A stretch of 64,000 nt of DNA from Dictyostelium discoideum (taxonomy: Eukaryota). The notes under the pieces are model-generated. The model had not been told where the DNA came from. It worked only from the letters and a program-made list of their open reading frames with translations, and did not search any database. Shown here piece after piece: positions 10,137 to 57,414 of the stretch. The first letter of the stretch is position 1. The number at the start of each line of letters is the position of its first letter. A program made the translations under genes and the position numbers. Location of the stretch: positions 576,001 through 640,000 of the forward strand of contig CM000155.2 of NCBI GenBank assembly GCA_000004695.1, given 5' to 3'.

Positions 10137-10210
10137 GTTCGGATGGTGTAGTCGGTTATCACGAATCCTTAACACGGATTAGGTCGTGGGTTCGATTCCC
10201 GCTCTGAATA
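10137..10210 (+). tRNA. tRNA-Val (anticodon AAC)
   Basis: Cloverleaf folded by hand. Acceptor GTTCGGA/TCTGAAT (2 G.U pairs), D arm GTGT-AGTCGGTTA-TCAC, anticodon stem AATCC/GGATT with loop TTAACAC, variable loop AGGTC, T arm GTGGG-TTCGATT-CCCGC. It closely follows the human tRNA-Val-AAC layout. A T6 Pol III terminator lies 10 nt downstream. Confidence 0.85.
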
Positions 10211-10242
10211 CAACTAGCTTTTTTGGGTGATTTCACATATCA

Positions 10243-10300
10243 CAGGTTCGATTCCTAACACCGCTTTTAGGTAAAAAAAAAAAAACAGGTTCGATTCCTG
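10243..10300 (+). promoter_or_regulatory. two external B-box (ex-B) elements downstream of tRNA-Val
   Basis: GGTTCGATTCC occurs at 10245..10255 and 10288..10298, 35 and 78 nt past the tRNA 3' end. The second copy, ACAGG-TTCGATT-CCTGT, is a perfect T-arm mimic. Confidence 0.55.
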
Positions 10301-19949: not shown

Positions 19950-22900
19950 ATGGAAAATCAAAGAATTTATAATATTAATTTAGATTTACTAAAAGATAAT
20001 ACATTAAATGGGAAAAATAATTATTATCCATCAACTTATTTAATTGAAGAATTAATAAAGATATTTCAAAATACTGATTTAATAATACCAATCTTTGAAT
20101 TTAAACCACCATTTATAATAGATAATGAATTGGAAAAATTTTATTTGCAAACAGAAATCATTGAAATTAATTCAAAAGAATATGAAATAAAATTCAATTT
20201 TAAAGATAATAAAACAAACCAATGGAATCAATTTTCAAAAGGAAATTTCTTACTATCAACTAATAATAATTATAATTTTAATGAAAAAGAAGTAGATTAT
20301 ATTGAAAATTTGAAATCTAAAATTTGTAATTTTACAAAAGTTTCAAAAGATGAATTTATAAATTTTATAGATGAAAAAACTGGATTAAAATATAATGGAA
20401 TTTTTAATAACAATATTAAAGATTGTTTAATTGGTGATAATTGTTCTTTACTAGTTGTATCATTGGAAGGATGTCAAAACCAAAATTTATTTTTTAATAA
20501 ACCTTTATTTAATATATTTTTAAGTGGTATGTTAATATTGGTTGATAGAAAATGTAAATTGAATTTTAATAAAATTGAAGGACTTAAATATTATTCACCA
20601 AACAATCTACCAAAAGATAAGGATCAATTAATTTCAGAAATTTATATTTATTCAAAATTAATTTCATCAAAAACAATTTCCTCAAATTCATATTCAGCAT
20701 CTGTAAAAGTTTTATTACCAGATGGAACTTTATTATTTGATATTGATAGAGTTGAATATAAATCATTAACATCTATTAAACCAATATCAATTGAACCACC
20801 AAATGATCATATGTATTCAGTTTATCAACAACCATTGAATTCATTAATTAAATCACCATTAAAATTTAAATCAAAATATCAAAATAAAATCAATGATTTA
20901 AATCATTTTCTAAATTACCAAGATGGTTCAACATCAAATTACAATGATTTCATTACAATTCAAAATCAAATTATTTCAAATATTGTAAAAGAAGTAATAA
21001 AACCAATTTTAAATGAAAAAATATTATTTAGAATATTAGATTTTCAAGGAGAAATAAATTCAACAACAATTATTTTAGAAAAGATAAATTCATTATTTGG
21101 AAAATTTCCAAATTTCCAAATTGATATTGAATATACAATAAACAATAAAAATCCACCAAAAAACAGTATACCAATTAAATTTGATAAAATTTTTAAAGAA
21201 AATAATTTAAATAATATATGTATAGTTATAAAAGATTTTAATTTAGTTAAAGATCAATTTAAAAATGGAGAAAATAACATTGAATCATATTATGATTTTA
21301 TAATAATATCAAATTTAAATTTAAATGAAAATAATTTAAAATCATTACTATTACAAATAAATCAATTATTAACTCCAAATGGTCATTTATTATTAATGGA
21401 ATTTAAATCAAAAATTTCATTTAACAAAAATAATTTAGAAAAATTATTAATTGAATGTAATTATTGTAATGATTTTGTAATTTTTTTAGATGATTCAACA
21501 CCATTATTGTTAATTCATACACAAAAACAAAATATACAATTATTTAAAAATATTTCAATCTCTAATGATTCAGAACAAATATTAAATAATTTATTATTTG
21601 AAAATATAATAATATTTGGTAATAATAATAATATTGACTTTAAATTGATTTATAAAAATAATGAAAATTATAAATCAATTTATCAAATTTCAAAAATTAA
21701 TGAAATAAATGAAAAATTAATAACCGATAAATCAATAATTTATTTTATAAAAACAATTGATAAACTTTTAATTGAAAATTTTAATGAAATAACTTTTGAA
21801 TATATTCAAATTAATCAAATGATAATGAAATTAAATAGTAAATGTAAACATGTTTTATTAGCAAAAGATATAAAAGGTGAAAATTATTTATCATCATCAG
21901 TAATAGGTGTTTCAAGATACTTTGATCAAATTCCTCAATTAGAATTATTTACAATAGATTTTGACAATAATTCAATTGATTCAATTTATAATGTTATTAA
22001 CGAATTAATTAATTCTAAAATTAATTGGTGGCAAAAAGAATTTACAATTAAAAATAATGAAATTTATTTTGAAATATTTAAAAAGGAATCAAAATTTATA
22101 AATAATATATTTAAATCAAATTCATATGAAAAAAATCATAATGAAATGATTACAAAAAAAAATTATAAAATTGTAGAAAAATATTTAGGTAATTCAATTT
22201 TAATTACAGGTCAATCAGGTTTTGTTTTAGAGATTTATAAATGGATAATTAATTATTCTGAAAGTGTTAAAAATATTATTATACTTTCAAAATCAAAATT
22301 AAAATGGGAATTAGAATTATTAATTAAAAAAAATAAACATATTAATTTCATTTTTAAAAGTATTGACGTTGGTAATACAAATGCAATGGAAGAAACAATA
22401 AATATAATTTTAAAAGAAAATTCAAATATAATTAATATTGATTCAATATTTCATTTCGCCGTTGAATATTGTACAACACCAGATCCTTTAGAAATTACAA
22501 TTAAAAATTTGGAGATTTCAAATTGTGCTAAAACAATGGGTGCAATTAATTTACATAATCAATCAGTTAAAAGAAATTGGAAATTAATTAATTTCATAAT
22601 GGCATCATCGGTTGCATCTTTATTTGGTGTAAATAGTCAATGTAGTTATTCAAGTTCATGTTATGTAATAGATTCATTGTCAGCATATAGAAAATCAATT
22701 GGATTACCATCGATTTGTACAAATTATGGTGTTTTAGGTGAAGCAGGACTATGTTCAAGAGTTCAAATGATACAAGATTTTACATTAAAATTGGGTTATG
22801 AACCATTACCTGCCAATATGGTATTAGGTGCATTAGATTTACAAATTCAAAACCAAAATATAGTCCCACTAGATTTTATACTCTCTAAACTTAATTTTAA

Positions 22901-22979
22901 CTTATTTAAAAACAGTAATCAAAGATTACTTAAAAAATTTGATTTTTTATTTAATTCAGTAAATATAAAAAAAGAATAA
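19950..22979 (+). CDS. free-standing polyketide-synthase fragment protein (DH-like / degenerate C-MT / KR-like region only; no KS, AT, ER or ACP)
   Basis: 1009-aa uninterrupted ORF in AT-rich DNA. The C-terminal 300 aa carry KR-domain signatures of Dictyostelium type I PKSs (ILITGQSGFVLEIYKWI..., FIMASSVASLFGVNSQCSYSSSCYVIDSLSAYRKSIGLPSICTNYGVLGEAG). The middle resembles a decayed C-methyltransferase (ILDFQGEINSTT..., TPNGHLLLMEF). AT-rich intergenic DNA lies on both sides, so it is not truncated by the window. Confidence 0.6.
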   Translation: MENQRIYNINLDLLKDNTLNGKNNYYPSTYLIEELIKIFQNTDLIIPIFEFKPPFIIDNELEKFYLQTEIIEINSKEYEIKFNFKDNKTNQWNQFSKGNFLLSTNNNYNFNEKEVDYIENLKSKICNFTKVSKDEFINFIDEKTGLKYNGIFNNNIKDCLIGDNCSLLVVSLEGCQNQNLFFNKPLFNIFLSGMLILVDRKCKLNFNKIEGLKYYSPNNLPKDKDQLISEIYIYSKLISSKTISSNSYSASVKVLLPDGTLLFDIDRVEYKSLTSIKPISIEPPNDHMYSVYQQPLNSLIKSPLKFKSKYQNKINDLNHFLNYQDGSTSNYNDFITIQNQIISNIVKEVIKPILNEKILFRILDFQGEINSTTIILEKINSLFGKFPNFQIDIEYTINNKNPPKNSIPIKFDKIFKENNLNNICIVIKDFNLVKDQFKNGENNIESYYDFIIISNLNLNENNLKSLLLQINQLLTPNGHLLLMEFKSKISFNKNNLEKLLIECNYCNDFVIFLDDSTPLLLIHTQKQNIQLFKNISISNDSEQILNNLLFENIIIFGNNNNIDFKLIYKNNENYKSIYQISKINEINEKLITDKSIIYFIKTIDKLLIENFNEITFEYIQINQMIMKLNSKCKHVLLAKDIKGENYLSSSVIGVSRYFDQIPQLELFTIDFDNNSIDSIYNVINELINSKINWWQKEFTIKNNEIYFEIFKKESKFINNIFKSNSYEKNHNEMITKKNYKIVEKYLGNSILITGQSGFVLEIYKWIINYSESVKNIIILSKSKLKWELELLIKKNKHINFIFKSIDVGNTNAMEETINIILKENSNIINIDSIFHFAVEYCTTPDPLEITIKNLEISNCAKTMGAINLHNQSVKRNWKLINFIMASSVASLFGVNSQCSYSSSCYVIDSLSAYRKSIGLPSICTNYGVLGEAGLCSRVQMIQDFTLKLGYEPLPANMVLGALDLQIQNQNIVPLDFILSKLNFNLFKNSNQRLLKKFDFLFNSVNIKKE

Positions 22980-23997
22980 TATATTAAATTAAACATTTTT
23001 TTAGACAAATAAATATTTTTTTTTTTATTGTCTCCAAGATAGAATATTCTGTTTTGGAGACATCTACAGTTATGAAAATTGCATTCATGTTTGATTTTTT
23101 TTTTTTTTTTTTTAGATTTTTTTTTTTTTAATCAATGTTTATCCATTAAAGGAATAGACTGTAATTAATAGGTTTATTTGTGAATTTTAAGTTAAAAAAA
23201 AACAAATAATATTTTGGTTTAAAGAAAAAATTATAATTTAATTTTTTTTTTTTGAAATGTAGCTATTTGTTTGAGATTTAGATTAGTTAAATAAATAAAA
23301 CTAAAATATAGAATTTAATTGATTTGATGAATTAGTCGAAGGATATAAAATTATAAGATATGGTTGGTACTGATTCAGGAATGCAATATACCTTACAAGT
23401 TAATTTCTTCATACAATTCACTTTTTTTTTTTTTTTTTTTTTTTGATATAAATAAACTATTGTAGTATACAATTAGTATGTTATTTTTATTTATTTATTT
23501 TAGGTCGTTTAGTTTTTGTGAATTTAAAATGGTACGTTATTTTAGATTAGGTAATTAATAATTAATTGGTGGTGTAATTGTTGGAATTGATTCATTTGTG
23601 TTTATGCTCCATTCTTTTTTAAATTTTTTGATGGTTTCGGACCATTGGGTTTCTTTTTGTGAGGTTGTTTTTAATTGAGTATTGGTTAAAGTTTGATAAT
23701 GTTCTTGAATATTCCAATCTTATTAACTTGTGCCATTTTGATTTTAATATATCATAATCTAGTGTTGTGTTGTTTATTTGGTTGTCCCAATTGTCAATTG
23801 ATTGAGTTATATAGATGTCAAATAATGATTTGCATAACCATATCCATATTTGGTGAATAACTAATGAGATTATGTTCCAATATGCATGTGTTCTGACTAG
23901 ATCAAGATTTGTGTATATATAATTCCAGTTGAACCTGTATTTTTTATATTGTGCGTTTTCTGCAAAATGAAAATTAATATTGATAGTTGGATCTGGT

Positions 23998-25077
23998 TTA
24001 AATGCTTTGTTGTTTGTGGTTTATAATGAGTGTGTATAATTTTGTTGTTTGGTTTTTTGTTAGTGACCAGTTTTTGTTTCCATTGCAATTTTTATATATA
24101 AAATATTTTAATTTGTCGTGGTTTATGAAGTTGATTGTGTGCTGACAATTGAAAAACAAATGACCATAGGGATCATTATTCATTTCATTGTTGCAAATGG
24201 GGCAAACTTTGTTGTGTAGATGATTAATCGGAAGACATCTAGCATGGAATCTTTGCATTGTATCACGCCCTTTTGGATCTTTTAATTTTTGAATTTTGAC
24301 AAATAGTTGGTCGTATGTGTATTTCCATAATAGTTGTATTGATTGTTGGTGCGAAGTAAGAAGTAGATCTGAATATTTCTTGCCAATATAGTCTTTTGAT
24401 TTACATTGGTGATTGTTGAGTATTGTCGAGTAGATTTCTTTGAGTGTTGGTGGTAGTGGAATATTATTTGTGTTTAATGTTTGAGAGGTTTGATTTTTTA
24501 TTAATATTGGTTGTAGGATTTGAACTTTATCTTTTAGATGTCCAATTTGAGTTGCATAGTTTTCCCATTCTCTTTTGATTTTTATAAGGTATGGAGAAGA
24601 GATTGATTTGTTGATGATTTGATCCATCCAACTTATCATGTATATTGAATTATTTGCCGATTTATGCATTTGTAAAAATCTGTTGTATATCCAAATCTTT
24701 TGAGCAACTTGTCGTAATTGTATATTCCACATACCCCAACCACCTTCTTTTAATGGTTTTAATGATCTATCATAACACATCAAAGGTATTTTTGCACGTG
24801 AATGGATGGTTGATGTGTTATTTTCAATGGAATTGGCATTGAGAGTTGGTGATTCAGAATTTGTGGGAGAATTCATAAACCATGAGATTAATTTATTAAT
24901 TTGAATTTCTTCATCTTTTGTAAATTCTTCAAGGTATGATAAATATGTTATTGGTGATAGTGAGTAGGTGTTTATGATGGTTGTTTTTGTTTTTAATGTT
25001 GTGCCACTAGTTTTCCATAGTACTAATGATTTATTCAATGTTTTCATTGTTTCTGGTAATTTCCATATGTAAACCAT
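23998..25077 (-). CDS. C-terminal part of ORF2 (zinc-knuckle domain), in a different frame from the RT part (frameshifted copy)
   Basis: 359-aa ORF overlaps the end of ORF 25031..27367 by 47 nt. It contains HARCLPINHLHNKVCPICNNEMNNDPYGHLFFNCQHT, which is conserved in the second element in this window. Confidence 0.6.
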   Translation of the reverse strand: MVYIWKLPETMKTLNKSLVLWKTSGTTLKTKTTIINTYSLSPITYLSYLEEFTKDEEIQINKLISWFMNSPTNSESPTLNANSIENNTSTIHSRAKIPLMCYDRSLKPLKEGGWGMWNIQLRQVAQKIWIYNRFLQMHKSANNSIYMISWMDQIINKSISSPYLIKIKREWENYATQIGHLKDKVQILQPILIKNQTSQTLNTNNIPLPPTLKEIYSTILNNHQCKSKDYIGKKYSDLLLTSHQQSIQLLWKYTYDQLFVKIQKLKDPKGRDTMQRFHARCLPINHLHNKVCPICNNEMNNDPYGHLFFNCQHTINFINHDKLKYFIYKNCNGNKNWSLTKNQTTKLYTLIINHKQQSI

Positions 25078-27367
25078 TATGATTAAAGAAATAGCTAAGG
25101 ACTCTTTCTGATTGATCTTTTTTGGTTATTGGTATTCTTTTTGATTGTGGAGTATTGTTTATTATGTGTTTATCAGTGATTTTGTGGGGGTTGATTTCTA
25201 TTATTGCACTTTTGTCAAAATTTAATGATGATGATGTTGAAGCGCAGAAATTATCGAAATGTTTGATTGATTGTTGTTGTTGTTCGTAGTTGATGTTGTA
25301 TGTTGTAGAGTCGTCTGCAAATTGGGTAAATTTGATTTTAATTTGTGGATTGGGTGAAATTGGTAAACCAATTATTGAATTGTCTGCATTTATTGTTCTT
25401 GCTAATATTTCAATTACAATTACAAATAAAGTGGCTTGTTTTACACCTTGTTTTACACCTCTTTTAATATCGAATTTTCTGGTTGTTTTACCATTAATTG
25501 AAATTTTTGCTTGTGAGTCAGATAATAGCTTGTGGATTAAATTTATTAATTTTATTGGTATACCAATATGAATTAATGTTCTTTTAATACTATCGTGAGA
25601 GATAGAATCAAATGCTTTAAAGAAGTCAAATAGTGTGATGATACCAGGGAGGTTTTTAGATTTGAGGTAGTTGATTAAATCATTGATGTTGATGATGTTG
25701 TCTATGATGAATCTGTGGGGTACGAAACCAGTTTGGTTGTTGTTGATGATGAAAGGAAGTATTCTCAGAAGACGTGCATTGATTACTTTTGAGAGGATCT
25801 TGTAATCAGTGTTTAGAAGTGTAATGGGACGACGATTTGATATGAGTAACGGGTTGCCTTTCTTGTATATTGTGTGTATAAGACCTTCGGTGAATTCTGT
25901 TGTGATGTGGTGAGGATTTTCTAGTATATCGTTGAATAATGTAGTGAGAATTGGTTTAACTTGGTTTAAATGATTAATGTAGAATGCATTTGTAACGCCA
26001 TCTGGACCGGGTGATTTGTTGGGGTTACAGGTTTTAATTGCAGCTTCAACTTCATCTTGTATAAATGGTGAGTCTAAACCATTCCAATATTCATTTTTTA
26101 TGATGGGCCATGTGTTTAGCATGAGCTGGTGAGTAATTGGACAACATATTTGTAAGCTATATAGATTTGTGTAGAATTCAACAAACGCATTTTCAATTTG
26201 GTCGGGGTCGGATGTAATGATGTTACCATATTGGATTGATTCAATTTTTGCATCTTTTGATCTTTTGTTTAGTATTGCTGATAGATACTTGCTAGGTATT
26301 TCTCCATTTATATGTTTTTTTAATATGTTTGTGTGGTTTTGATGTAGTTTGTTTTTGTTACATATAATATTGTATTCAGCGATGCATTGTTCTTCAAGAT
26401 GTTTGAATTTTGCTGCTTTTTCTAATAGTATTTGTTTTGCACGTTGAGTTTGTTTGTCTTTGTTATATTGATAGTTTTTTAGAGTTTTTATAATTTTTGA
26501 TTTTACTTTTGACCAGTTTGTAAATTGATTGATTGATGTGTTATTGTGATTAGTTATTAAATGATTGATAATATTGATTGCTTCATGGTCATTTGCAGTA
26601 CCAGGTGATAATATCCATCTTTTCTTATGTTTATTTATTTGAAAAGGTGAAGAAATTGTTGTTGATATTGGATTATGATCTGATAATGAAGATGGAATTT
26701 GGTGGACTTGTGTATATATATTTTCAGGGTCTATTCTATTGTATTGAGTATATATTCTATCTAATCTGTTGCCATGTGTATGAGTTGGAGTGTTTTTAAA
26801 TTCACCTTGATCAATTAGATGGTGTTGGTATGTGTAGGATTGGATAATATCATCTAATAGTGAATTGTCGTTGTGGATACAGTTGAAATCTCCTGCGATA
26901 ATAGATACATGTTGGGATTGGTTTGGTATTGGGTTTGTTGAGTGGTTGTGGAGAAGTGTTTGTAGTGAAGTTGCATATGAATTCTTTTTGATGGTATTAT
27001 TTGATGCTGGTGCGTAAATTCCAAGAATACCAATTGGTAATTGATTTGGAAATATAACGTCTGCTAAAATAGCTCTACCATCAATTGTTGATATGTGTTT
27101 GAGTTTGAGTGTGTTTGGGTTATGGTTAATGATGATTACACCATTTCCTCGTTTGGTGACAGAGATGATGTGATCGGGAAAATCATGTTTAAGTTGTAAT
27201 GGTGATGAATTGAGTTCAGTGAGTATTGAGATTGTTGGACGAGGTGGAAGTTTTGATATAAGTAGTTGTAGTGTGTCAACAGCTTTTTGGTAGGAATTGT
27301 GTTGATTGTTTGGGTTTTCAGTGAATCCTCTACAATTCCATGTTATAAAGTTGATTTTTGAGCTCAT
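25031..27367 (-). CDS. retrotransposon ORF2, AP-endonuclease + reverse transcriptase domains (778 aa)
   Basis: N-terminal EEP-nuclease-like MSSKINFITWNCRGF...IIAGDFNC. RT motifs PGIITLFDFFKAFDSISHD, KRGVKQG, QFADDSTTY. Confidence 0.8.
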   Translation of the reverse strand: MSSKINFITWNCRGFTENPNNQHNSYQKAVDTLQLLISKLPPRPTISILTELNSSPLQLKHDFPDHIISVTKRGNGVIIINHNPNTLKLKHISTIDGRAILADVIFPNQLPIGILGIYAPASNNTIKKNSYATSLQTLLHNHSTNPIPNQSQHVSIIAGDFNCIHNDNSLLDDIIQSYTYQHHLIDQGEFKNTPTHTHGNRLDRIYTQYNRIDPENIYTQVHQIPSSLSDHNPISTTISSPFQINKHKKRWILSPGTANDHEAINIINHLITNHNNTSINQFTNWSKVKSKIIKTLKNYQYNKDKQTQRAKQILLEKAAKFKHLEEQCIAEYNIICNKNKLHQNHTNILKKHINGEIPSKYLSAILNKRSKDAKIESIQYGNIITSDPDQIENAFVEFYTNLYSLQICCPITHQLMLNTWPIIKNEYWNGLDSPFIQDEVEAAIKTCNPNKSPGPDGVTNAFYINHLNQVKPILTTLFNDILENPHHITTEFTEGLIHTIYKKGNPLLISNRRPITLLNTDYKILSKVINARLLRILPFIINNNQTGFVPHRFIIDNIININDLINYLKSKNLPGIITLFDFFKAFDSISHDSIKRTLIHIGIPIKLINLIHKLLSDSQAKISINGKTTRKFDIKRGVKQGVKQATLFVIVIEILARTINADNSIIGLPISPNPQIKIKFTQFADDSTTYNINYEQQQQSIKHFDNFCASTSSSLNFDKSAIIEINPHKITDKHIINNTPQSKRIPITKKDQSERVLSYFFNHNGLHMEITRNNENIE

Positions 27368-28572
27368 ACCTTACTAGGTTTGGCAGCACCAGTATTGACT
27401 GGTTGTGTAGTCAGGGCATTGCTGCTTCTTCTTGTATTTATTGTATTTGGAGTTGGTGCACTTGGTTTGTTTGGTTGAGATTGTAGAGGTTTTTGTGGTA
27501 CAATTGTTGGATCGGTTGGATTGCTCATTGATAATGAGTTTTTCCCGTTATTATTATTTGAAGAATCACTTTTGTGTGAAATTTCATTATTGTTTTGGGA
27601 TTGATTGTTAATATCAAGTGATTCATTTAGTATAGCTTTTGAACCACTATTTTGAAGTGAGTTATTATTGCGATTGGAATTTGCAATTTCGTTGATTGGT
27701 GGGGTGTTAATGTTGTTTTTTGGTGGTTGATTGTTTTTGTTCATGTTTGGGTTTGTGATGGCATTTTTTATAGTTGTTGCCATATCTGCATTTTTTGCAT
27801 GTTGAATTTTGTGTTTAGTGACACTACGTGTTGCAGCTTTGATATATCTTGTGATACCAGATGGTTGTTCGATCTTTTGATCAACAATGTTGTGTGTGTG
27901 ATCAATTAGATGATATGTTATAATGTAGCTTTTAAACGCAACAGCATATGAGTATGTGACAGTAAATGATTCAATTGATGTACAACTGGTGAATTTAGTG
28001 AGGTTGTTTGTAATTGCATCGTTTGCATGTTTGGGTGAGTACGTTTTAATGAATGTTTTAATGATTGCATAATCATTTGATGATATATCGAATCTATAGT
28101 TGAGTTTGTCGATATTTAGTGCAAGTTGGTTTTGAAGGTTGATTATTGAAGTTAATTTATCAACGTTGCAATTTACGAAGGCAGTTGCACCAATTATTTT
28201 GAATGCTGATGGCGACAGTATATCTTCGAAGAGTTTGTGAATGTTTTTGTGAATTTGTTGAATTCTTGTGTCATCTTTTGAGGTTAATTCTTCACGGATG
28301 TGTGGTTGATTAAAGTAACACTTAATGTTGATGGTGTTATTGTTTTTTTCTAAGAAAGAGAGTGGTCTTGTGATTGATGGAGGTGCAATGATATCTAATT
28401 GATTATCAAGTCCTTTGTTTAGTGAGAGTTGGTTTGTTGGGGTTTGTTTTTTAGGTGTGTCGATTTTTGCACTTTTATTTTTTGTTGTTGAGGTTGTGGA
28501 GGTATTATTTGTATTGGTCGTGTTGTTATCTGTATGATTTAACTGTAATTCAGTTGAGTGATCATCAGCCAT
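27364..28572 (-). CDS. retrotransposon ORF1 (402 aa)
   Basis: ORF track entry. Ser/Thr/Asn-rich and basic. Its stop overlaps the ORF2 ATG as ATGA. Confidence 0.7.
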   Translation of the reverse strand: MADDHSTELQLNHTDNNTTNTNNTSTTSTTKNKSAKIDTPKKQTPTNQLSLNKGLDNQLDIIAPPSITRPLSFLEKNNNTINIKCYFNQPHIREELTSKDDTRIQQIHKNIHKLFEDILSPSAFKIIGATAFVNCNVDKLTSIINLQNQLALNIDKLNYRFDISSNDYAIIKTFIKTYSPKHANDAITNNLTKFTSCTSIESFTVTYSYAVAFKSYIITYHLIDHTHNIVDQKIEQPSGITRYIKAATRSVTKHKIQHAKNADMATTIKNAITNPNMNKNNQPPKNNINTPPINEIANSNRNNNSLQNSGSKAILNESLDINNQSQNNNEISHKSDSSNNNNGKNSLSMSNPTDPTIVPQKPLQSQPNKPSAPTPNTINTRRSSNALTTQPVNTGAAKPSKV

Positions 28573-28763
28573 TGTTGAAAAGTATATAGGACGATAGCCC
28601 TTGCTTTAATGAGCAAAAAAAGGGTAAAATTAAGAGGAATGAATGTGGCGGTGAAGATATAACAGTGATTTATTTATTATATGTATAAATTCTCGTTTAT
28701 TTCTTTGTTTTTTCGGTTTTTTTTTCGTTTTTTTCGTAAAAAATATATTTCCCAAAAACAATG

Positions 28764-28843
28764 TGGAAGATGAGGGACTCGAACCCACGACCCCGGAGGA
28801 TAGAGCCTAAATCTATTGTCTTAACCATCTCGACCAATCTTCC
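28764..28843 (-). tRNA. tRNA-Leu (anticodon UAG), class II with long variable arm
   Basis: The reverse complement folds by hand. Acceptor GGAAGAT/ATCTTCC, D arm GTC-GAGATGGTTAA-GAC, anticodon stem ATAGA/TCTAT with loop TTTAGGC, variable arm CCTCCGGGGTC, T arm GTGGG-TTCGAGT-CCCTC (one T-T mismatch). The layout matches human tRNA-Leu-TAG. A T5 terminator lies downstream on the minus strand. Confidence 0.75.
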
Positions 28844-28900
28844 ATGTCAAGGTTAAAATTTTTTTTCGTCCAATCTTCCGTCTCAACCTTAAAATTTTTC
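28834..28900. repeat. diverged tandem duplication of a ~33-bp unit that includes the first 10 nt of tRNA-Leu
   Basis: CCAATCTTCCATGTCAAGGTTAAAATTTTT is followed immediately by CCAATCTTCCGTCTCAACCTTAAAATTTTT (26 of 30 identical). Confidence 0.5.
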
Positions 28901-29107
28901 ATTTAATTTTCAATATTATTATTATATGTTTGAATTGGCTCAATATCTTTTGATAATTCATTTAAGAAGCCCATCATATACTTGAATCAAGGTTGGAATC
29001 CAATCCTGTTGGCCTTTGGTGTAGAATTGATGATTGGACATATCGATAGAATTGAAACCAGTAAAAAGTTTTTTTTTTTTTTTTTTTGTTGACCTGGAAT
29101 GAGTGGA

Positions 29108-29150
<43 letters not shown>

Positions 29151-29591
29151 TTTAAAATATATTTTTATACACAAATAAAAATGGTAAAGAGGATTAAAAA
29201 AAAAAAAAAAAAAAAATTAAAAATGAAAAAATATTTTTTGGGGTAAAACAAGGGGTGTGAATATCTTAAAATTTTTTTTTTTTTTTTTTGCTAAAAACGA
29301 TCATTTTTACTATTATTTTTTTAATTTTATTACTTGACCGCTTGTGACACAGTAAATAGAGGTCCACAATTGTTTGTAAAGATTTTGTGCAAATTGATAT
29401 ATTCAATATTTCACTGGACAAATAATTGGTAGACCCACTGCGAACCCATGGAAGTTTTGATTTATCATGTAGTTTCATCGTCGTTAGAGTGTATAAAATG
29501 AAATCATTACTATTTTTTATACAACCTTAATTTCGAGAGTCTATGAATGATTTTAATTTTAAAAACTTCATTAAACGTTCATTGAATCAAT

Positions 29592-29688: not shown

Positions 29689-30323
29689 AGCATTATATCA
29701 TCATCATCATTAAAATTACAATCACTATTAAATAATAATAATAATGATATGTTTTCAATTTATAGTGATAAAAGAGAGAGATGATTGAACAAAAATCCTA
29801 TGAAATTTCAAAACTCAAAACAAAAAAAAATTGTGGTTGTTACTGTCATTACTTAAGCCATTACTATTAATAGTCTTTCTAATTAGTGCAAGAGTATATT
29901 CTAAATGGTTAATTCTATATAGAAACATCATTTTTTCCTTTTTAACTAGTTTAATGTAAGCCAATATTGATCATTATAAATAAAGGAACACACAATTAAT
30001 ATTATATGAATGCTGTAAAGCGTGAATCAAAACTAACTTTATTTTTTTCATTTTTTTCAGTTTTTATAATTTTCGATCGAGGAGTTTCCAACGAAAACTC
30101 TAAAATATATAAAAACAAAATAAATTATTTTAATTATTATTTTAATTATTATTGTTTAATTGTTATTCATTATTATTCTTATTATTATTAGTATTATTAA
30201 TTTTTTTTTTTTTTTTTTTTAATATTGGATTAACAAGATTGATATATGTCCATCTGTGTTAATACGAGTTTTTATTTAATATTTATTTATAGGCTTATCA
30301 TTTAAGCTGAAGGGTTATTTTAA

Positions 30324-33300
30324 TCATATGAATTGATCAAAAGATATAATATTTGGGAGAGATGATTCTGGAATACAATAGTAATTAGCTGTTGTTTTTC
30401 TTAGCTTGATCGTTGAGGTGAGAAGGATCTTAGGATCTTTGAAATTATTATGGTCTTTTGCTGATAAGTTTTTCAGATCTTTTGCTTTTTTGATGTATTC
30501 TAGAGTGGCCAATTTGTGCCATTTCTTTAGAAGGGAGCTGTATGATAATGATTCATTTGTTAAAGGATCTTCACTGTATATTTGATTGCAAATCCAAATC
30601 CAAATGTTGTGGAGGATAAGGGCCATTAGGTTTCTATATGCGAATGATCTGGTTAGATCATAGTCTATTGCTTTATAGTTCCATTCAAAGTATTCTTTGT
30701 GGAATCTGTGGTTGGCGTAATCTGCATTCACTTTTTGATCTTTTTTGGCTGTCGGTGATAATTTTGGAGTTATTCTATTAATGAAATTGTTATTTTGCCT
30801 AATTCTTGTATGGTGCCAGTTTTTACCTTTGCCTGTGGTAATATAGATGAAATTTTTGAGTTTATTTATTTTTATGAATTGTTTTGTTTTCTTGCATGAG
30901 AAGAACAGGTGACCGTATGGGTCTTTGCTCATATCTTCTTTGCAGAGTGGGCATTGTTTGTTGTGAAGATAGTTTATTGGAAGGCATCTGGCATGGAATC
31001 TAAACATTGTGTCTCTTGTTTTAGGGTCTTTTATCTTCAGTATGTTGTTGAAGAGTTGATTATAGCTGTAGCCTCTTAAGTTTAGAGATGATTGGAATTC
31101 CGTTTTAGGGATGGTTGGATTTTGGTCTTGAATTGTGGTATACCATTCTGCCAGTGAAAGTGGTTGTCCATTTTCGTTTTTTATGGATGTGAGATTATTG
31201 TTGAAGATTGCTTTTTTTATTCTTATTTTGTTCCATTCGTCTAAGTTTTCTTTTAGGTATCTGGATGTGAATTTGTTTTTTTGGATCTGATATTCCCAGC
31301 TTTTGTGATGAGATGAGTTTGTTTGTTTGGTTTCTAGTGCTAGGATGAACTGGTTTATGATCCAAAGTTTCTGCGCCAGTTGTCTCAATTCTATATTCCA
31401 AATGTTCCAGCCCCCTACTTTTAGTGGGTATCTTGCTCTTTTGGTTCTCATTAAATTAATAACTTGAAATCCACTAGCATTTTTGTTGTTTGGTGCCGAT
31501 AAAAACCATTCGACTAATTTATTGATTTGGTTTAATTCCTCTTCCTTAAAGTTCTCTACATATGAATAGTAGGTTAATTTAGAGAGTGCGAATGCTTTGA
31601 GGATGTTGGTTTTGGTTTTTATTGTTGAGTCAGTGGTTTTCCATAGTACTAAGGATGATCTTATTGTGTTTAATATTTCTGGCATTTTTCTTGTTATCCC
31701 TTTACCTGTGAAGAAGTATCCCAAGTATCTTTCTGGATTTGTAGATATTGGAATTCTTTGGTTGGTATTGTCTGGGTTGCCTATAAGAATTGATGAAGAT
31801 TTGTCGATGTTTAGTTTTGAGGAAGTGGCTTTGCAAAATGAATTGAAGTGTTGTAGTACTAATTCAAGTTGTTGAGAGTCTGGGACCATTGAAGCCGAGT
31901 CGTCTGCAAAGCTTTGGAATTTCTCTCTGTGGTTGCTGTTGTTTAGAGGAAGGCCAGTAATTCGATCATCTTGTAAAATTTTTCTAGCTAAAGCCTCTAT
32001 TACAAGGACGAACAGTGTGGGTGATAGTGGATCTCCTTGTTTAACTCCTCTTTTGATCTCAAAGGGTATAGTAATTTCAATTCTTGCTTCAGATTTGGTG
32101 AGTAGATTCATTATCAGGTTGATTATATTGGTTGGAATGTTGATGTGTTGTAGTGATCTAAGTATTGAACCGTGTGAGATCGAGTCAAAAGCTTTTTCGA
32201 AATCATATAGTGTAATTATTCCGTTAATTCTTTTATCATTACAATAGTTGATTAATTCGTTCATTGATATGATATTATCTAGAATGAATCTGCCTGGTAC
32301 GAAACCTTTTTGATTGTGGTTGATCACTTTCGTTAGTATTGGGATTATTCTATTGTTTATTAGCTTTGAGTGGATTTTATATATCCAGTTAGCCAGTGTA
32401 ATTGGTCTTCTGTTTTTGATTAGTTCGGGGTCTCCCTTTTTAGGTATCGTGATAATGAGGCCTTCTTTGTAATTTTTGCTAATTAGATGAGGATTTCTTA
32501 GAGTGTCGTTGAATGCTGAGGCCAGTATTGGAGCTAGTTTTTCTTTGTGTGTTATGTAGAATAAGTTTGGAATTCCATCTGGGCCTGGAGATTTGTGTGG
32601 GTTCAATTGTTTTATTACTTCTAGGATCTCTTGTGATGTGAATTCATTTTCAAGGTTGTCCCATGTTGAGTCCCTGGTCACTGTCCAATTTTCCAACATT
32701 TCATAATGAGATGGTGGGTCATCTTCTTTGTAGTCATAAAGATTTGAGTAATATTTTACGTATTCTTCTTCGATCAATTCCTGTTTGTTGATTGTTCTAC
32801 CTTGTGCATCTTTTACTGCGTTGATGGTGAAATCATTGTGTCTTTTCTTGATTCTCGCGGAGATGTACTTGAGTGAGGTTTCTTCGCAATAGTTGTTCAA
32901 TTCTTGTTTAAGTTGTTCTTCTCTTTTTTTAGATTCATTTATTGCTGAAAGGGTTGCGAAGGCTTGGTCTTTAAATTCTGTCTCTAGTAGGGAGATTAGA
33001 TTTTTGATGTTTGCCTTATTGTTGTAGTCATTTTGTTTTTGAAATTCTGTGTATAGTTGTTTTATTTTGTTTAGTAAGCTGTTGAGTTGAGAGAAGGAAA
33101 TAGAGTTATGGTTGGATGACAGCTCCCTTGAATAATCGTTAAGTAGGAAGTCTATTTTCTTAAGCATTATGCTTGAGAGGATTGAGGATTTTTTTAATCT
33201 CCATCTGCGCTTGTTCATCTGTATGTTGGGTAGAGTGAAGGTGGTTGATAGGAAGTTGTGATCTGATAGAGGTATGTCATTAATTTTTGGGGGGATTAGG

Positions 33301-34016
33301 TTCCTTAAGTATAATTGGCTGTAGTTGATTATGCTATTGTTAAGGTATATTCTGTCTAGTCTCCTTTCCAAGATTCTTGTGAGGTTATTGTTTGTGTTGT
33401 GTATCGTTCTTGAGAAGGTGGGTCTTTTATTTAGTTGGTCCATATCCATTAGGTTATTTGAAATTCTGATGGCTTCGATTACTGTGGCCATCTCATCTGG
33501 GGATTGTGTTGTCAAGTTGCCTTGGTCATCATTTGATGTGTGATTGTCATTGAAGTCTAAACAATTGAAGTCGCCTGCTATGATGTCGATGTTTTTTTTA
33601 GGGTTAGACGTTAGGTTGTGGTATTGGTTGTTGAAGTGTTTGTTTAGTGTTGAAGCTAGTATTTTTCTTTTATCAGGTTGGGCCGGGGCGTATATGGCCA
33701 AGATTCTCGTTGTGGTATCTTTTATTAGAATGTCTGATATTATTAGTCTACCTTCTATTATGAATATTGGTGAGAGTTTTATGTTTTGGTTGTTGTGGTT
33801 TAGTATTCCTATTCCGTTGCCTCTTTTGGTTGCGCTAATGATGGAGCCAGGGAATAGCTGGTGTGCTTGTGTTGCGTCGGCGTTGAGTTCATTGACTATG
33901 GTTAGTGCCAATGAGTTTGGGGGGGATTGGGATTTGATAAAGTCTGTTTTGTTTTTGAAGGAGGTGTCAGTGCCCCAACCTCTGACATTCCATTGGTTGA
34001 TTTTGATTACTACCAT
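30324..34016 (-). CDS. retrotransposon ORF2: AP-endonuclease + reverse transcriptase + zinc-knuckle, intact 1230 aa
   Basis: MVVIKINQWNVRGWG...IIAGDFNC (EEP nuclease). RT motifs NGIITLYDFEKAFDSISH, KRGVKQGDPLSPTLFVL, FADDSA. C-terminal CPLC...DPYGHLFFSC. Confidence 0.85.
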   Translation of the reverse strand: MVVIKINQWNVRGWGTDTSFKNKTDFIKSQSPPNSLALTIVNELNADATQAHQLFPGSIISATKRGNGIGILNHNNQNIKLSPIFIIEGRLIISDILIKDTTTRILAIYAPAQPDKRKILASTLNKHFNNQYHNLTSNPKKNIDIIAGDFNCLDFNDNHTSNDDQGNLTTQSPDEMATVIEAIRISNNLMDMDQLNKRPTFSRTIHNTNNNLTRILERRLDRIYLNNSIINYSQLYLRNLIPPKINDIPLSDHNFLSTTFTLPNIQMNKRRWRLKKSSILSSIMLKKIDFLLNDYSRELSSNHNSISFSQLNSLLNKIKQLYTEFQKQNDYNNKANIKNLISLLETEFKDQAFATLSAINESKKREEQLKQELNNYCEETSLKYISARIKKRHNDFTINAVKDAQGRTINKQELIEEEYVKYYSNLYDYKEDDPPSHYEMLENWTVTRDSTWDNLENEFTSQEILEVIKQLNPHKSPGPDGIPNLFYITHKEKLAPILASAFNDTLRNPHLISKNYKEGLIITIPKKGDPELIKNRRPITLANWIYKIHSKLINNRIIPILTKVINHNQKGFVPGRFILDNIISMNELINYCNDKRINGIITLYDFEKAFDSISHGSILRSLQHINIPTNIINLIMNLLTKSEARIEITIPFEIKRGVKQGDPLSPTLFVLVIEALARKILQDDRITGLPLNNSNHREKFQSFADDSASMVPDSQQLELVLQHFNSFCKATSSKLNIDKSSSILIGNPDNTNQRIPISTNPERYLGYFFTGKGITRKMPEILNTIRSSLVLWKTTDSTIKTKTNILKAFALSKLTYYSYVENFKEEELNQINKLVEWFLSAPNNKNASGFQVINLMRTKRARYPLKVGGWNIWNIELRQLAQKLWIINQFILALETKQTNSSHHKSWEYQIQKNKFTSRYLKENLDEWNKIRIKKAIFNNNLTSIKNENGQPLSLAEWYTTIQDQNPTIPKTEFQSSLNLRGYSYNQLFNNILKIKDPKTRDTMFRFHARCLPINYLHNKQCPLCKEDMSKDPYGHLFFSCKKTKQFIKINKLKNFIYITTGKGKNWHHTRIRQNNNFINRITPKLSPTAKKDQKVNADYANHRFHKEYFEWNYKAIDYDLTRSFAYRNLMALILHNIWIWICNQIYSEDPLTNESLSYSSLLKKWHKLATLEYIKKAKDLKNLSAKDHNNFKDPKILLTSTIKLRKTTANYYCIPESSLPNIISFDQFI

Positions 34017-34981
34017 TATGAGATGATATCGATCTCCTCTTGGGAGTCGTTTAGCTGCGGTTTGGATGGTGAAGGGTAGATACTCTCTATGAAGCTCTCA
34101 ATGATTCCTTTCCTTTCTTTTTTGACAGGTGTCTTAGGGGTGGATGGGATGTAAGGGTTGCTTCTGTTTATTGTTGGTGAGAGTTGGGTGACTTCATTGT
34201 TTGAGTGGATTTCCTCGTTCTTGCGTTTATGTGATGGAGGGATGTTTAGTGTCTTCTCTCTGTTTTCCGAGGATGAATGGATGTTAGTGCTTGTTTTGTT
34301 GGCATTGTCTTTTTGGATGGCGTTGGATGTTGTGGTAGTGGTTGTGGTGGGTTTGACAGATTGAGATTCTGCTGGGTTTTTGGGGGGAAGAGGTTGAGAT
34401 GACTTTTTTGCTTGGGCTTTTTTCTCTTGTGTTGATTGTTTATCAGACTGATTGTTTGCTGGGTTGTTTGTTTGGGTGTTAGGAGGATCTGTCATCTCAT
34501 CTTCTAATGGTTCCTCCGTGTTGTTTGTCTCTACTTTCTTGTTTTTCTTTTGTGAGGAGTAGGTTTTGGTGGCCGTTCTGATGGTAAAGTTTGCGATTTC
34601 TGTAATGTGTTGGCCAGATTTCATTTGATCGCCTATTTTGCATTCTATTAGACCGAATACTATGAGGTGGTCGGTGGAGTATATAGTATTGTATATTGCA
34701 TAGGGTATTTCTTCTGCAAAGGCAGTTTTGATGAGGGCGTCCACTATTCCTGCCTTTTCTCTGGGAATTCTTACTCTTCCTGTGAGGACGTGGAAGTCTC
34801 TACTGGAGGTGATGAAGGTTCCCAATTTGCTTCTATCTCTAATGATATTTAGGAGAGATTGTTCGTTTTTAATCATCAGGTGGATCATTTTTCTAGTTCC
34901 TTTGCCTATGTATATCTTGTCGATTGGGATATCGTAGTTTGAGAGTGTTTTTCTCATTTCTTCTAACCCCTTGAGATCCAT
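34016..34981 (-). CDS. retrotransposon ORF1 (321 aa)
   Basis: ORF track entry. Its stop codon shares one nucleotide with the ORF2 ATG (TAATG). Confidence 0.65.
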   Translation of the reverse strand: MDLKGLEEMRKTLSNYDIPIDKIYIGKGTRKMIHLMIKNEQSLLNIIRDRSKLGTFITSSRDFHVLTGRVRIPREKAGIVDALIKTAFAEEIPYAIYNTIYSTDHLIVFGLIECKIGDQMKSGQHITEIANFTIRTATKTYSSQKKNKKVETNNTEEPLEDEMTDPPNTQTNNPANNQSDKQSTQEKKAQAKKSSQPLPPKNPAESQSVKPTTTTTTTSNAIQKDNANKTSTNIHSSSENREKTLNIPPSHKRKNEEIHSNNEVTQLSPTINRSNPYIPSTPKTPVKKERKGIIESFIESIYPSPSKPQLNDSQEEIDIIS

Positions 34982-35278
34982 TTTGGGGAATTCGAGTGTA
35001 ATTGGGTAGAATCCGTTGTTCTTCTCCTAGGTTGAGAGCGCAGTCATGTTCAATATGGTCTCGCAGTATTTGGAGATGTCTTTGAGGCCTATTGATAGTT
35101 TGGGGTAGGTCTCCTTTATCTCTGCTGTTTTTGTGGAGAATTCCTTAATGAAGTTCTCCGATGCCTCGTCCATATGGGTGGAGGGGTTGGCCATTTTAGC
35201 CGCGTCTGCGTAGGAATTCATCTCGATGGGATTGCTTTGAATCGCCGATTTGGTAAGCTAGATCTGCAGATCGCGCCG

Positions 35279-35378
35279 NNNNNNNNNNNNNNNNNNNNNN
35301 NNNNNNNNNNNNNNNNNNNNNNNNNNNNNNNNNNNNNNNNNNNNNNNNNNNNNNNNNNNNNNNNNNNNNNNNNNNNNN
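35279..35378. other. assembly gap (100 N)
   Basis: N run. Confidence 0.95.
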
Positions 35379-35443
35379 TTGAAAAAAACAATCACCCACA
35401 ACAATTTTTTTTTTTGAATATTTCATTTTTCAAATAAAAAAGC

Positions 35444-35488
<45 letters not shown>

Positions 35489-35563
35489 GGAACCAAGTTA
35501 ATTAGAAAATTTCCAGATTTTTAACTTTTTAAAGAAAAATAAAAAAGATAGAAAGAAAATAAA

Positions 35564-36898
35564 ATGAAAATCACAAACAACACCACAAATATTAAGCAAC
35601 ACAAATGCCTACAAAAAATAAGCGAAATTGTGGATAAAACTCAATTAAAAAAAAAACAATTCAAATACGTCATAAACATCAATCACGAACCAGACGATAA
35701 AATAAAAAAAGATTTAGAAAAAAGTTTGGACAAAAAAGATGTTTTAATCAAAAGTAATAATACATTCAAAATTCTCACAGACAGTATTAGTACAGTAATC
35801 TATTTTGTAAATATGTTTGATGCAGAATTAAAAGGACAATTTATAACCACTATAAGACCAAAAAATATGTATACAGATTTTGATTGGTATAAATCACTCA
35901 CAGAAATAGAATGGGTAATAGAAAATGAAGGATGTAAACTAATTAAATCAGAAATTAAAGGCGAAACTCTAATTATCAAAACAGTGAAAAGAGTCGTAGA
36001 AGAATTTGACACTATCATTGAACTAGACAATCTAACATTAATTGGACACTCCAACAAAGGATGGAGAGATCAAACCTCATTACCAGAAAATCAAGAAGAA
36101 AACAAAAATAAAAAACAATCAGATGAACAACAACCACAATCTACATCAGAACAAATACCAAAACAAGGAAAAAGAACAATCATTATCCCACCAATCACAT
36201 CCTCATCTAATGATAAAACATTTATGGCCCTAGATGATACAGCTCAAAAGGTAATAGAAGCATCACTAGAAAACGTAGATGAACTAACAAGAATAGAGAA
36301 TGAGATCAATACACAATCGATAAACAATCAAGAAATTAAAACAAAATCAGAAAAACCTATCGAACCACCATCTCCATACAATACACCAATAAAACAACAC
36401 GGCGAAACAAAGGGACTAACAACGGAAGAAAAACTTAGAGAGGCAAATGATATCTTCGACTTCACCAGCCCAAACACTGATGCAATAAGAAAAATAGAAT
36501 TCCCACTTTCAATCCCTTCAAATCAATGGTTCTTCTCCTCTCCAATAAAACATATCATGAGTTTCAGCCCAACCTATGGTACACCATCGAAAATTATCGA
36601 TTCACCAAGTAAATTGTTAAACACACCAAAAAAGAAACAACAAGACAAAACAAACAAGACCAACAAAACACCAGTCAAACCAAAATTGGGTGAATATGGA
36701 CAAAAAAGCATAAAAACAAAAATGGATGAAGATATAGACAACTTCAACAAGGAAATTCTAAAACAAATCAATAAATCAAAAAACCCCACAAACACACAAG
36801 ACCAACAACACAATGAACAAAGTAAAGATCAGTTAGAAGACAAAATAAACCAGAAACTTCAAAAGGTAGATAAAAATCTACCCCAAATAAAACTATAA
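35564..36898 (+). CDS. TRE5-A-like ORF1 protein (444 aa)
   Basis: ORF track entry. The identical N-terminal 63 codons recur at 37297..37485. Confidence 0.6.
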   Translation: MKITNNTTNIKQHKCLQKISEIVDKTQLKKKQFKYVININHEPDDKIKKDLEKSLDKKDVLIKSNNTFKILTDSISTVIYFVNMFDAELKGQFITTIRPKNMYTDFDWYKSLTEIEWVIENEGCKLIKSEIKGETLIIKTVKRVVEEFDTIIELDNLTLIGHSNKGWRDQTSLPENQEENKNKKQSDEQQPQSTSEQIPKQGKRTIIIPPITSSSNDKTFMALDDTAQKVIEASLENVDELTRIENEINTQSINNQEIKTKSEKPIEPPSPYNTPIKQHGETKGLTTEEKLREANDIFDFTSPNTDAIRKIEFPLSIPSNQWFFSSPIKHIMSFSPTYGTPSKIIDSPSKLLNTPKKKQQDKTNKTNKTPVKPKLGEYGQKSIKTKMDEDIDNFNKEILKQINKSKNPTNTQDQQHNEQSKDQLEDKINQKLQKVDKNLPQIKL

Positions 36899-42162: not shown

Positions 42163-43497
42163 GAAGTCCAATAGATGATAGAAGGAATACTCCATTACCA
42201 CCACCACAACAACAACCAATTACACCAAACCAACAACAACAACCACAAATACAACAGCATCAACAAATACAGCCACCTCAACAACAGCAACCAATATATA
42301 ACCCTTATCCACCATATCCATATTATCAAACNNNNNNNNNNNNNNNNNNNNNNNNNNNNNNNNNNNNNNNNNNNNNNNNNNNNNNNNNNNNNNNNNNNNN
42401 NNNNNNNNNNNNNNNNNNNNNNNNNNNNNNNTTATCAACCTCCACCAAATCCATATTATTATAAACATCCACCACCAGCACCACATTATGTTCCACCTAA
42501 TCCTTATTATCAAATTCCACAACCCCCACCAGCACCACAACCACCACAACCACCACAACCACCCCAACCACCACAAGCACCTCTACCACCTCAACCACCT
42601 CAACCACCCCAAGCACCTCAACTACCTCAACAACTAATTCCATCACAAAAACAAGAGCATCAAAATATAAGTAGAACGTCAGCTTCAGTAATAGCAGAGG
42701 CAACAGCTGCCTCATCAAATAATCAAAAATTAAACTATCAACCACCACCACCAAGTTATTATCAACATCAACAACAACAACCAAATAATTATCAGCAACA
42801 ACAACAACAACAACAACAATCATCACCATTACCACCACCAAATTATTATTTAAATCCATTATCACAAACTCCAATTGATCCACAAATGGCAAGTACATCA
42901 GCAAATTTAATTGATAGAGAGTTAGAGAATGAACAATTTTATCCACCAATTCAAAGTTTCTCAGCCAATATTTTAGCAAATGGACAAACATTAAGCAATG
43001 TTAATTTTAATAATCAAACCTTGAAGAACATTACCTTTTTAAATAGTACAATATCGGCAAGTCGTTATCAACATACAAGATTCGAAGGTTGTATCTTTCA
43101 AGAATGTAACATCAATAGCAGTTCCTTTATCGAATCTGCATTCATTGATTGTATATTTATGAATTGTAATATCAATGGTTGCGATTTCTCAAAATCAACC
43201 CAAGAGAACTGTTATCATGTCAATAGTGATATCTCCAATTGTAATTTCTTTCAATCCTCTGGTAACAATGTCAAATATGTCGCTGTCACTATGTTAAATA
43301 ATAATTTCGCTCATAGTATTCCTCGTAGTACATTCTGTAGATGCAACCTAACAAATGCTCAATTCTCAAATTGTAATCTCTCAAAAACAAGATTTAAAAT
43401 CTCACAACTCAATTATGCTAATTTTGTCTCTGCTTATTTCGACCTTCCATTAGACCATATCTTTGATCAAAGATCTGAAAGAAAACTTTGTAAATTT

Positions 43498-48701: not shown

Positions 48702-53217
<4,516 letters not shown>

Positions 53218-57314: not shown

Positions 57315-57414
57315 NNNNNNNNNNNNNNNNNNNNNNNNNNNNNNNNNNNNNNNNNNNNNNNNNNNNNNNNNNNNNNNNNNNNNNNNNNNNNNNNNNNNNN
57401 NNNNNNNNNNNNNN
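57315..57414. other. assembly gap (100 N)
   Basis: N run. Confidence 0.95.

Follow-up and report, generated by a model that had tools for sequence, protein, structure and literature searches.

TRE3 elements have been known since 1999, as has their insertion downstream of tRNA genes. Human LINE-1 is alike in being a bicistronic non-LTR (non-long terminal repeat) retrotransposon with an APE and reverse transcriptase (RT) containing second open reading frame (ORF2), in moving by target-primed reverse transcription and in having variable 5' ends and target-site duplications, and it relies on an unconventional form of re-initiation for the translation of its ORF2. Unlike the TRE3-B subfamily, LINE-1 has a 63-nt spacer between its ORFs instead of an overlap and does not target tRNA genes. 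The ORF1 of TRE elements is not similar to L1 ORF1p, and a TRE3 element, as defined in the same source and here, has two ORFs, ORF2 encoding APE, RT and a zinc finger (PMC5006619). Consensus sequences have been published with lengths of 5279 nt (TRE3-B), 5229 nt (TRE3-A) and 4734 nt (TRE3-C) (PMC5006619 Table 1). TRE3 elements are found 40–150 bp downstream of tRNA genes, sharing their orientation (PMC5911963), and for TRE3-B the distance to the tRNA gene is 34–188 bp (PMC5006619). Skipper-2 targets the same region downstream of tRNA genes (PMC5006619); unlike TRE3-B it is an LTR/chromovirus element with an integrase, and belongs to another class with another mechanism. Here we describe 64,000 nt of chromosome 6 of Dictyostelium discoideum AX4 (GenBank contig CM000155.2, positions 576,001 to 640,000; hereafter the window), in which a retrotransposon copy that is very probably TRE3-B lies behind a tRNA-Leu(UAG) gene. 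A TRE3-B element in the documented position is already known, and dictyBase already has an annotation for this copy; its mosaic composition and a doubtful frameshift in it are useful annotation notes, not discoveries.

The window is AT-rich (G + C content approximately 15–35%) and all features of the element are on the minus strand. Reading downward from 28843, the order is tRNA-Leu(UAG), a T5 terminator, an A-rich stretch, ORF1, the motif ATGA, ORF2 and A23. The TRE3-B-type element (el1, 23422–28732) was compared with the copies in the loci L001–L005, with L008 (copy 1) and with copy 3 of L010; L001, L005 and copy 3 of L010 served as intact references. L008 and L010 are from a second assembly, GCA_054883475.1 (locus tags ACTFIT), L010 being a longer piece of the L008 contig. 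Orthologous loci were taken from GCA_054859355.1, a D. discoideum strain approximately 10% diverged from the window (L006), and from D. cf. discoideum (L007). The window holds a second element, el2 (approximately 30200–35400). The features at the locus of el1 are as follows.

28764–28843, minus strand: tRNA-Leu(UAG) gene (ARAGORN, Rfam RF00005)
28733–28763, minus strand: genomic flank of 31 nt from tRNA to element (L006 empty-site allele)
23422–28732, minus strand: non-LTR retrotransposon copy assigned to TRE3-B, 5288 nt plus A23 (copy alignments, empty-site allele)
28573–28732, minus strand: 5' untranslated region (UTR), 160 nt, with the A-rich start AAAAACGAAAAAAAAACCGAAAAAAC (5'-end alignment, L010 junctions)
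27364–28572, minus strand: ORF1 ('gag'), 402 aa, intact (ORF list, protein match)
27364–27367, minus strand: ATGA, the ORF2 ATG over the ORF1 TGA, two bases shared (sequence)
25031–27367, minus strand: ORF2 segment a, 778 aa (Pfam)
approximately 27346–26675, minus strand: APE domain; approximately 25864–25199, minus strand: RT domain (Pfam)
25890–26346, no strand: mosaic switch interval (comparison with ACTFIT copies 3 and 1)
25433–25459, minus strand: RT-motif lesion, in frame, net −3 nt (against L001, L005 and copy 3 of L010)
25321–25310, minus strand: FADD motif of the RT
25065, minus strand: extra T, CATAGG to CATATGG, +1 frameshift (private to the reference)
23998–25077, minus strand: ORF2 segment b, 359 aa, +1 frame (ORF list)
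24246–24145, minus strand: CCHC zinc-finger motif in ORF2 segment b
24017–24026, minus strand: 1-nt deletion (approximately 24025) and 4-nt deletion (24017) (against intact copies)
23555–24011, minus strand: remnant of the ORF2 C-terminus, approximately 150 aa in two further frames (three-frame translation against the intact 1275-aa P0013)
23557–23555, minus strand: family ORF2 stop codon
23554–23445, minus strand: 3' UTR, 110 nt, followed by the A23 tail at 23444–23422

The element showed the non-LTR organisation that is expected of TRE3. ORF2 has the order APE, RT, zinc finger, the 3' end is a poly(A) tract at the position given in the first-pass annotation, and long terminal repeats, direct or inverted, were not found. 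Pfam matched Exo_endo_phos (aa 8–231, 5e-13) and RVT_1 (aa 502–723, 3e-27) in segment a of ORF2, gave only weak zinc-finger matches in segment b (E approximately 0.02) and matched no domain in ORF1. Two other details of the first-pass annotation, the overlap of the ORF1 stop and ORF2 start as ATGA and the 47-nt overlap of the two ORF2 segments at 25031–25077, were recovered as described, and the zinc-knuckle motif that it reported for both TRE3-like elements of the window was found in el1 (HARCLPINHLHNKVCPICNNEMNNDPYGHLFFNC) as well as in el2 (HARCLPINYLHNKQCPLCKEDMSKDPYGHLFFSC). Over its full 402 aa, ORF1 has 100% identity to the D. discoideum 'gag' protein AAD43056.1/Q9Y1H6, and the whole element is 98–99% identical to other genomic copies; the pattern did not arise by chance. 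After correction of the reading frame, ORF2 is 98% identical to that of the intact 1275-aa DDB_G0291958 (P0013). An intact family member measures 5303 nt without its tail and consists of a 160-nt 5' UTR, a 402-aa ORF1, a 1275-aa ORF2 and a 110-nt 3' UTR.

The 5' end of the element was obtained from an empty site. In L006, the polyketide synthase (PKS)-like gene and tRNA-Leu(UAG) are present and there is no retrotransposon. The flank behind the tRNA gene in L006 matches the window up to ...TTTACGAA (28733) and continues as unrelated genomic sequence; because the match stops there, the 5' end of the element lies at approximately 28732, 31 nt past the 3' end of tRNA-Leu and in the same orientation. 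In the copy-to-copy alignment the shared sequence begins in the A-rich CCGAAAAAACAAAG region and the 5' ends vary by approximately 40 nt; the interval of 28735–28716 that this alignment alone had given for the 5' end was replaced by 28732/28733 from the empty-site allele. Copy homology and the empty-site allele thus both place the end short of 28843, and the first-pass annotation was right that the element follows tRNA-Leu(UAG) directly, head-to-tail and in the manner documented for TRE3, with both on the minus strand and the distance at the near edge of the published range. On the other side, the element is flanked by a PKS-like ORF of 1009 aa, which is XP_635328.1 on the AX4 contig.

The first-pass classification as TRE3-like was correct at the level of the family and could be refined, very probably to TRE3-B for el1 and to TRE3-A for el2. 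The record of AAD43056.1 gives no subfamily name in its output, and identity to this protein alone gives no subfamily. ORF2 shares 40% identity with the el2 (TRE3-A-like) family and 33% with another Dictyostelium family, P0026, as pairwise values only. A literature search with the gene and protein accessions gave no match that named the subfamily. The name TRE3-B follows from three lines of evidence, which together make it a strong inference from sequence comparison. Firstly, the length of the intact copy (5303 nt) can be compared with the 5279 nt of the TRE3-B consensus. Secondly, the el2 family is more abundant (a cluster of 79 members) and its reconstructed length of approximately 5.2 kb fits TRE3-A. 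Thirdly, the dictyBase label of DDB_G0291686 is 'TRE3-B ORF2' (PMC12405889 Table 2), and by accession order this gene falls between two gene models encoded in the window. The protein of the AX4 model DDB_G0291688 (XP_635330.1) reproduces the private lesions of the window copy, and this model therefore represents the window locus; the element is covered by DDB_G0291688 and probably also by DDB_G0291686. It weighs against the assignment that the name depends on length, abundance and the label of a neighbouring gene identifier, and that the distance of 31 nt is slightly under the TRE3-B range of 34–188 bp.

Compared with the intact copies, ORF2 of the window copy is damaged at several positions. 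In the RT motif, GGTGTAAAACAA is duplicated where GGTGACCCAATCTCA belongs, changing RGVKQGDPISATLF into RGVKQGVKQATLF; a 12-nt tandem duplication has taken the place of 15 nt, by which RGVKQGDPIS has become RGVKQGVKQ and QGDPIS is lost. The deletions at 24025 and 24017 together cause a second frameshift with a premature TAA at 24000–23998, and an 8-nt deletion at 23659 interrupts the C-terminal remnant. The stop at 23998, which had been taken as the natural end of ORF2, is not its end, as the family ORF2 extends for approximately 150 aa more, to 23555.

The frameshift ahead of the zinc knuckle, to which the first-pass annotation ascribed the probable death of this copy, is present in the reference as the extra T at 25065. 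However, this T is absent from L001, L005, copy 3 of L010 and also L008, which contains the same insertion as the window beside the same PKS-like gene and in which it is the sole difference from the window over 3.4 kb (22900 to 26346). Given that an independent assembly of this insertion lacks it, the extra T may be either an error in the reference or a private mutation, and the frameshift in the reference should not be trusted. The RT-motif lesion and the three downstream indels (24025, 24017 and 23659) are common to the window and L008. Since these four other lesions are present in an independent assembly, the 3' half of ORF2 is truly degenerate whatever the status of 25065. The copy is therefore dead, as had been suspected, but mainly through the loss of the RT motif, the 24025/24017 indels and the 23659 deletion, rather than through the frameshift that had been flagged.

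Comparison with the ACTFIT assembly showed that the reference copy is composed of two different elements. In L010, the locus contains an array with the order tRNA-Leu, TRE3-B copy 3 (intact), TRE3-B copy 2, an internally deleted TRE3-A, TRE3-B copy 1 and the PKS flank. Differences of the window copy to copies 3 and 1 were counted in 500-nt bins. From 28732 to approximately 26233, the window copy had 0–1 differences per bin to copy 3 (2 in total); from approximately 26232 to 23445, it had 0 differences to copy 1 except for the extra T at 25065. With the non-matching partner, 5–13 differences per bin were found. Within the switch interval, copies 1 and 3 are identical to each other. Above 26346, the copy in L008 is 1.2% diverged from the window, lacks 117 nt and adjoins the tail of a TRE3-A instead of the tRNA gene. 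The reference copy is a mosaic, of which the 5' 2.5 kb equal the intact tRNA-proximal TRE3-B and the 3' 2.8 kb the degenerate distal TRE3-B.

The flanks are in agreement with this. The last 10 nt of the 31-nt flank, TTTTTACGAA, are the target-site duplication of the tRNA-proximal copy 3 in L010, where a second, clean copy of these 10 nt stands after the poly(A) of the element. Around the window copy no target-site duplication was found, as its flanks share no word of at least 7 nt, which is expected if the two junctions stem from different insertion events. A target-site duplication that has diverged beyond recognition was also considered and was ruled out, the element and its tail being too young (98–99% identity, pure A23).

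Such a hybrid may have arisen when an array was collapsed in the Sanger-era reference, or through a genuine unequal crossover with loss of approximately 13.5 kb; we judge these two origins to be near even. In the event of a collapse, AX4 itself would carry the approximately 19-kb array as found in ACTFIT, and the reference would have joined the first copy to the last over 457 nt of identity. The copy changes partner cleanly, only 3 differences being counted over 5.3 kb; the extra T is isolated when the window is compared with L008, which has the same insertion; in ACTFIT, copy 3 is bordered by a proper target-site duplication; and el2 also ceases abruptly to match its ACTFIT copy, above 31120, and adjoins a 100-N gap, which leans slightly in the same direction. 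However, ACTFIT is not demonstrably AX4. Its unique DNA at the locus differs by approximately 0.08% from the window, and this strain difference, by which structural polymorphism and reference collapse are inseparable, counts against our reading of the locus. Exact look-ups of P0013, of the 1009-aa PKS-like ORF and of the 778-aa frameshifted product of segment a returned no record, and the last of these favours neither side. Altogether, the case for a collapse is evenly balanced, and the same holds for the extra T at 25065 being, in that event, a base-calling error.

It is also quite possible, although we would place it somewhat short of an even balance, that the mosaic is a real recombinant, formed in the AX4/NC4 lineage by an unequal crossover between the proximal and the distal TRE3-B in which two elements (approximately 13.5 kb) were lost. 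The T at 25065 would in that case be a later mutation, to which we give similar credence. The mosaic pattern in the 500-nt bins would be the same, strains differ elsewhere in the locus, and recombination takes place readily between direct repeats of this kind (5.3 kb, 98% identity). On the other hand, a second independent event would be needed for el2, which looks mosaic as well, and the repeat clusters of the reference are broken by N gaps, pointing to difficulties in assembly. The view implicit in the first-pass annotation, a single TRE3 insertion that decayed in place and was inactivated by the frameshift at 25065, reflects that, in the reference taken by itself, a single element separates the tRNA gene from the flank, but it is very improbable in view of the lacking target-site duplication, the near-identity of the 5' half to an intact copy with all private differences in the 3' half, and the absence of the 25065 insertion from L008, where the four other lesions are present.

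In common with TRE3-B, the element is from D. discoideum, has an identical 'gag' ORF1, an ORF2 with APE, RT and zinc finger, a poly(A) end and an intact copy of 5.3 kb, and lies downstream of a tRNA gene, whose orientation it shares, at a distance of a few tens of bases. The window copy departs from the norm of TRE3-B in being a hybrid of two array members without a target-site duplication, in its destroyed RT motif and three or four frame breaks, and in its position just under the published distances. The AX4 locus may hide a four-element array of approximately 19 kb, including an intact and potentially active TRE3-B.

TRE3 multiplies by target-primed reverse transcription. The endonuclease of ORF2 nicks the DNA a few tens of bases downstream of a tRNA gene transcribed by RNA polymerase III (Pol III), and polyadenylated RNA is copied into the nick by the RT, so that the new insertion has the orientation of the tRNA gene, carries a poly(A) tail and is bordered by a short target-site duplication. 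At this locus the target is tRNA-Leu(UAG), with the 5' junction 31 nt past its 3' end. ORF2 starts at 27367, in the −1 frame with respect to ORF1, and a TAA in the ORF2 frame is present two codons upstream of the ORF2 ATG (27373–27371). The ATGA junction is conserved in all copies examined, including L001–L005 and copy 3 of L010. In AAGGUAUGA (AAG GUA UGA), the sole interval available for slippage, no slippery heptamer of the type X XXY YYZ was found. Because the ORF2 frame is closed two codons before the AUG and a slippery heptamer is lacking, re-initiation is more economical than slippage. We therefore tentatively propose that the endonuclease and RT of TRE3-B may be produced by termination-reinitiation at the AUGA, and not via a −1 frameshift in the style of TRE3-A; this is a possibility read from the sequence of the junction.

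Programmed −1 ribosomal frameshifting at the ORF1/ORF2 junction would agree with the −1 frame of ORF2. In addition, a review states that TRE5-A and TRE3-A require a −1 frameshift for ORF2 (PMC5911963), which for TRE3-A speaks against our proposal, and in el2 no stop interrupts the −1 frame in the 28 codons upstream of the ATG, which makes frameshifting sterically possible there. In TRE3-B, however, the TAA would confine slippage to AAG GUA UGA, where the heptamer is missing, and frameshifting appears unlikely. If termination-reinitiation is indeed used by TRE3-B, the closely related TRE3-A (84-nt open overlap) and TRE3-B (7-nt interval) would use different recoding routes.

The tRNA gene targeted by the element was called by ARAGORN as tRNA-Leu(tag) at 28763–28843 on the minus strand, and its match to Rfam RF00005 (28843–28764) scored 55.0 bits, with a gathering score of 29. 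The T-stem mismatch for which the first-pass annotation had questioned the function of this gene is present; in the Rfam alignment it is the single non-standard pair of the T-stem, U50-U64 (GUGGG/CCCUC). However, the doubt is weakened by its conservation in the approximately 10% diverged strain, L006, where the gene is 80/80 identical despite diverged flanks. The gene is identical in L010 too. In L007 it shows two double-sided changes in the acceptor stem that keep the pairing (compensatory), and a U-A pair where the window gene has the U-U mismatch. The internal B box, GGTTCGAGTCC (28785–28775), and a Pol III terminator T5 at 28758–28754, a run beginning 6 nt past the 3' end of the gene, are retained. 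With a conserved mismatch, a score far above the threshold and an intact B box and terminator, tRNA-Leu(UAG) is probably functional. The four TRE3 insertions behind tRNA-Leu in ACTFIT indirectly argue that Pol III factors occupy the gene.

Several further observations were made directly upstream of tRNA-Leu. A 34-nt tandem duplication (85% identity) at 28830–28899 comprises the first 14 nt of tRNA-Leu and 20 nt upstream of it, so that a fragment of the tRNA 5' end stands immediately upstream of the gene; ACTFIT has the same duplication. A block of 166 nt, located 50 nt upstream of tRNA-Leu, is 84% conserved between the window (28895–29060), L006 (15154–15331) and L007 (22684–22860). In L006, a gene of 715 aa lies at a distance of 1.6 kb from the tRNA gene, and the block corresponds to its 3' end; the remainder of the 715-aa gene had no match in the window. 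This points to sequence deleted or rearranged in the AX4 lineage. Between a T42 run and an A21 run, at 29078–29150, the unusual 21-mer GTCCACTCATTCCAGGTCAAC (minus strand) is present, and the T-run beside it differs in length by 12 nt between the window and ACTFIT assemblies.

The AX4 gene models at the locus are affected by the element. DDB_G0291688 (1134 aa) is a spurious fusion of an exon upstream of tRNA-Leu (28980–29120) with ORF1 and ORF2 segment a of the TRE3-B, and the 'introns' predicted in it run across the tRNA gene and across the ATGA junction. DDB_G0291686 is the strongest up-regulated gene in a dnmA knockout, with a log2 fold change (log2FC) of 7.4 (PMC12405889 Table 2). If DDB_G0291686 is the degenerate ORF2 fragment at 23998–25077, the dnmA signal stems from a dead or mosaic copy. 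Expression studies naming DDB_G0291686 or DDB_G0291688 would read a degenerate or mosaic transposon copy.

The second element of the window, el2, is a TRE3-A-type (Tdd-3) copy on the minus strand at 30200–35278, and its 5' UTR enters a 100-N gap (35279–35378). Its architecture and zinc-finger motif are as in el1, and here too the frame of ORF2 is −1 with respect to ORF1, stop and start overlapping. In contrast to el1, the junction is TAATG, with an overlap of 1 nt instead of 2 nt; the ORF2 proteins are approximately 40% identical and ORF1 (321+ aa) is unrelated. ORF1 runs from 34981 to 34016 and ORF2 (1230 aa) is intact in frame. Compared with its relatives P0025 and P0023, el2 has an in-frame TAG near 35030 in ORF1 and lacks 4 aa (NGRT) in ORF2. 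An A-run at 29272 was considered as the 3' end of el2 and was ruled out, the poly(A) of the TRE3-A being at approximately 30202–30221.

On the other side of the gap, a TRE5-A-like ORF1 of 444 aa is located on the plus strand (35564–36898). Synteny with L006 (18486–18559) predicts a tRNA-Glu(UUC) gene between the 5' end of the TRE3-A and this ORF1 (35279–35560). BLAST found no tRNA-Glu in the window, and the predicted gene is probably located in the N gap. One tRNA gene would then have a TRE5 upstream of it and a TRE3 downstream, which is the classic layout.

Elsewhere in the window, a tRNA-Val(AAC) gene (10137–10211) is followed by two exact 11-nt B-box-like copies of the GGTTCGATTCC type at 10245–10255 and 10288–10298, approximately 35 and 78 nt downstream. 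These resemble external B boxes; there is no TRE insertion at this gene. At a tRNA-Lys(UUU) locus in ACTFIT (L005, 2780–2860 and 8150–8240), three successive insertions have the same target-site duplication, (TTTTA)GTATTACCAAAA. The first TRE3-B at this locus contains the B-box-like GGTTCAAATCC inside the duplicated boundaries, which may have been acquired by 5' transduction, the source copy having stood behind an external B box. Further 100-N gaps in the window are located at 42332–42431, 51337–51436 and 57315–57414, at least the first of which lies in sequence of strongly skewed composition.

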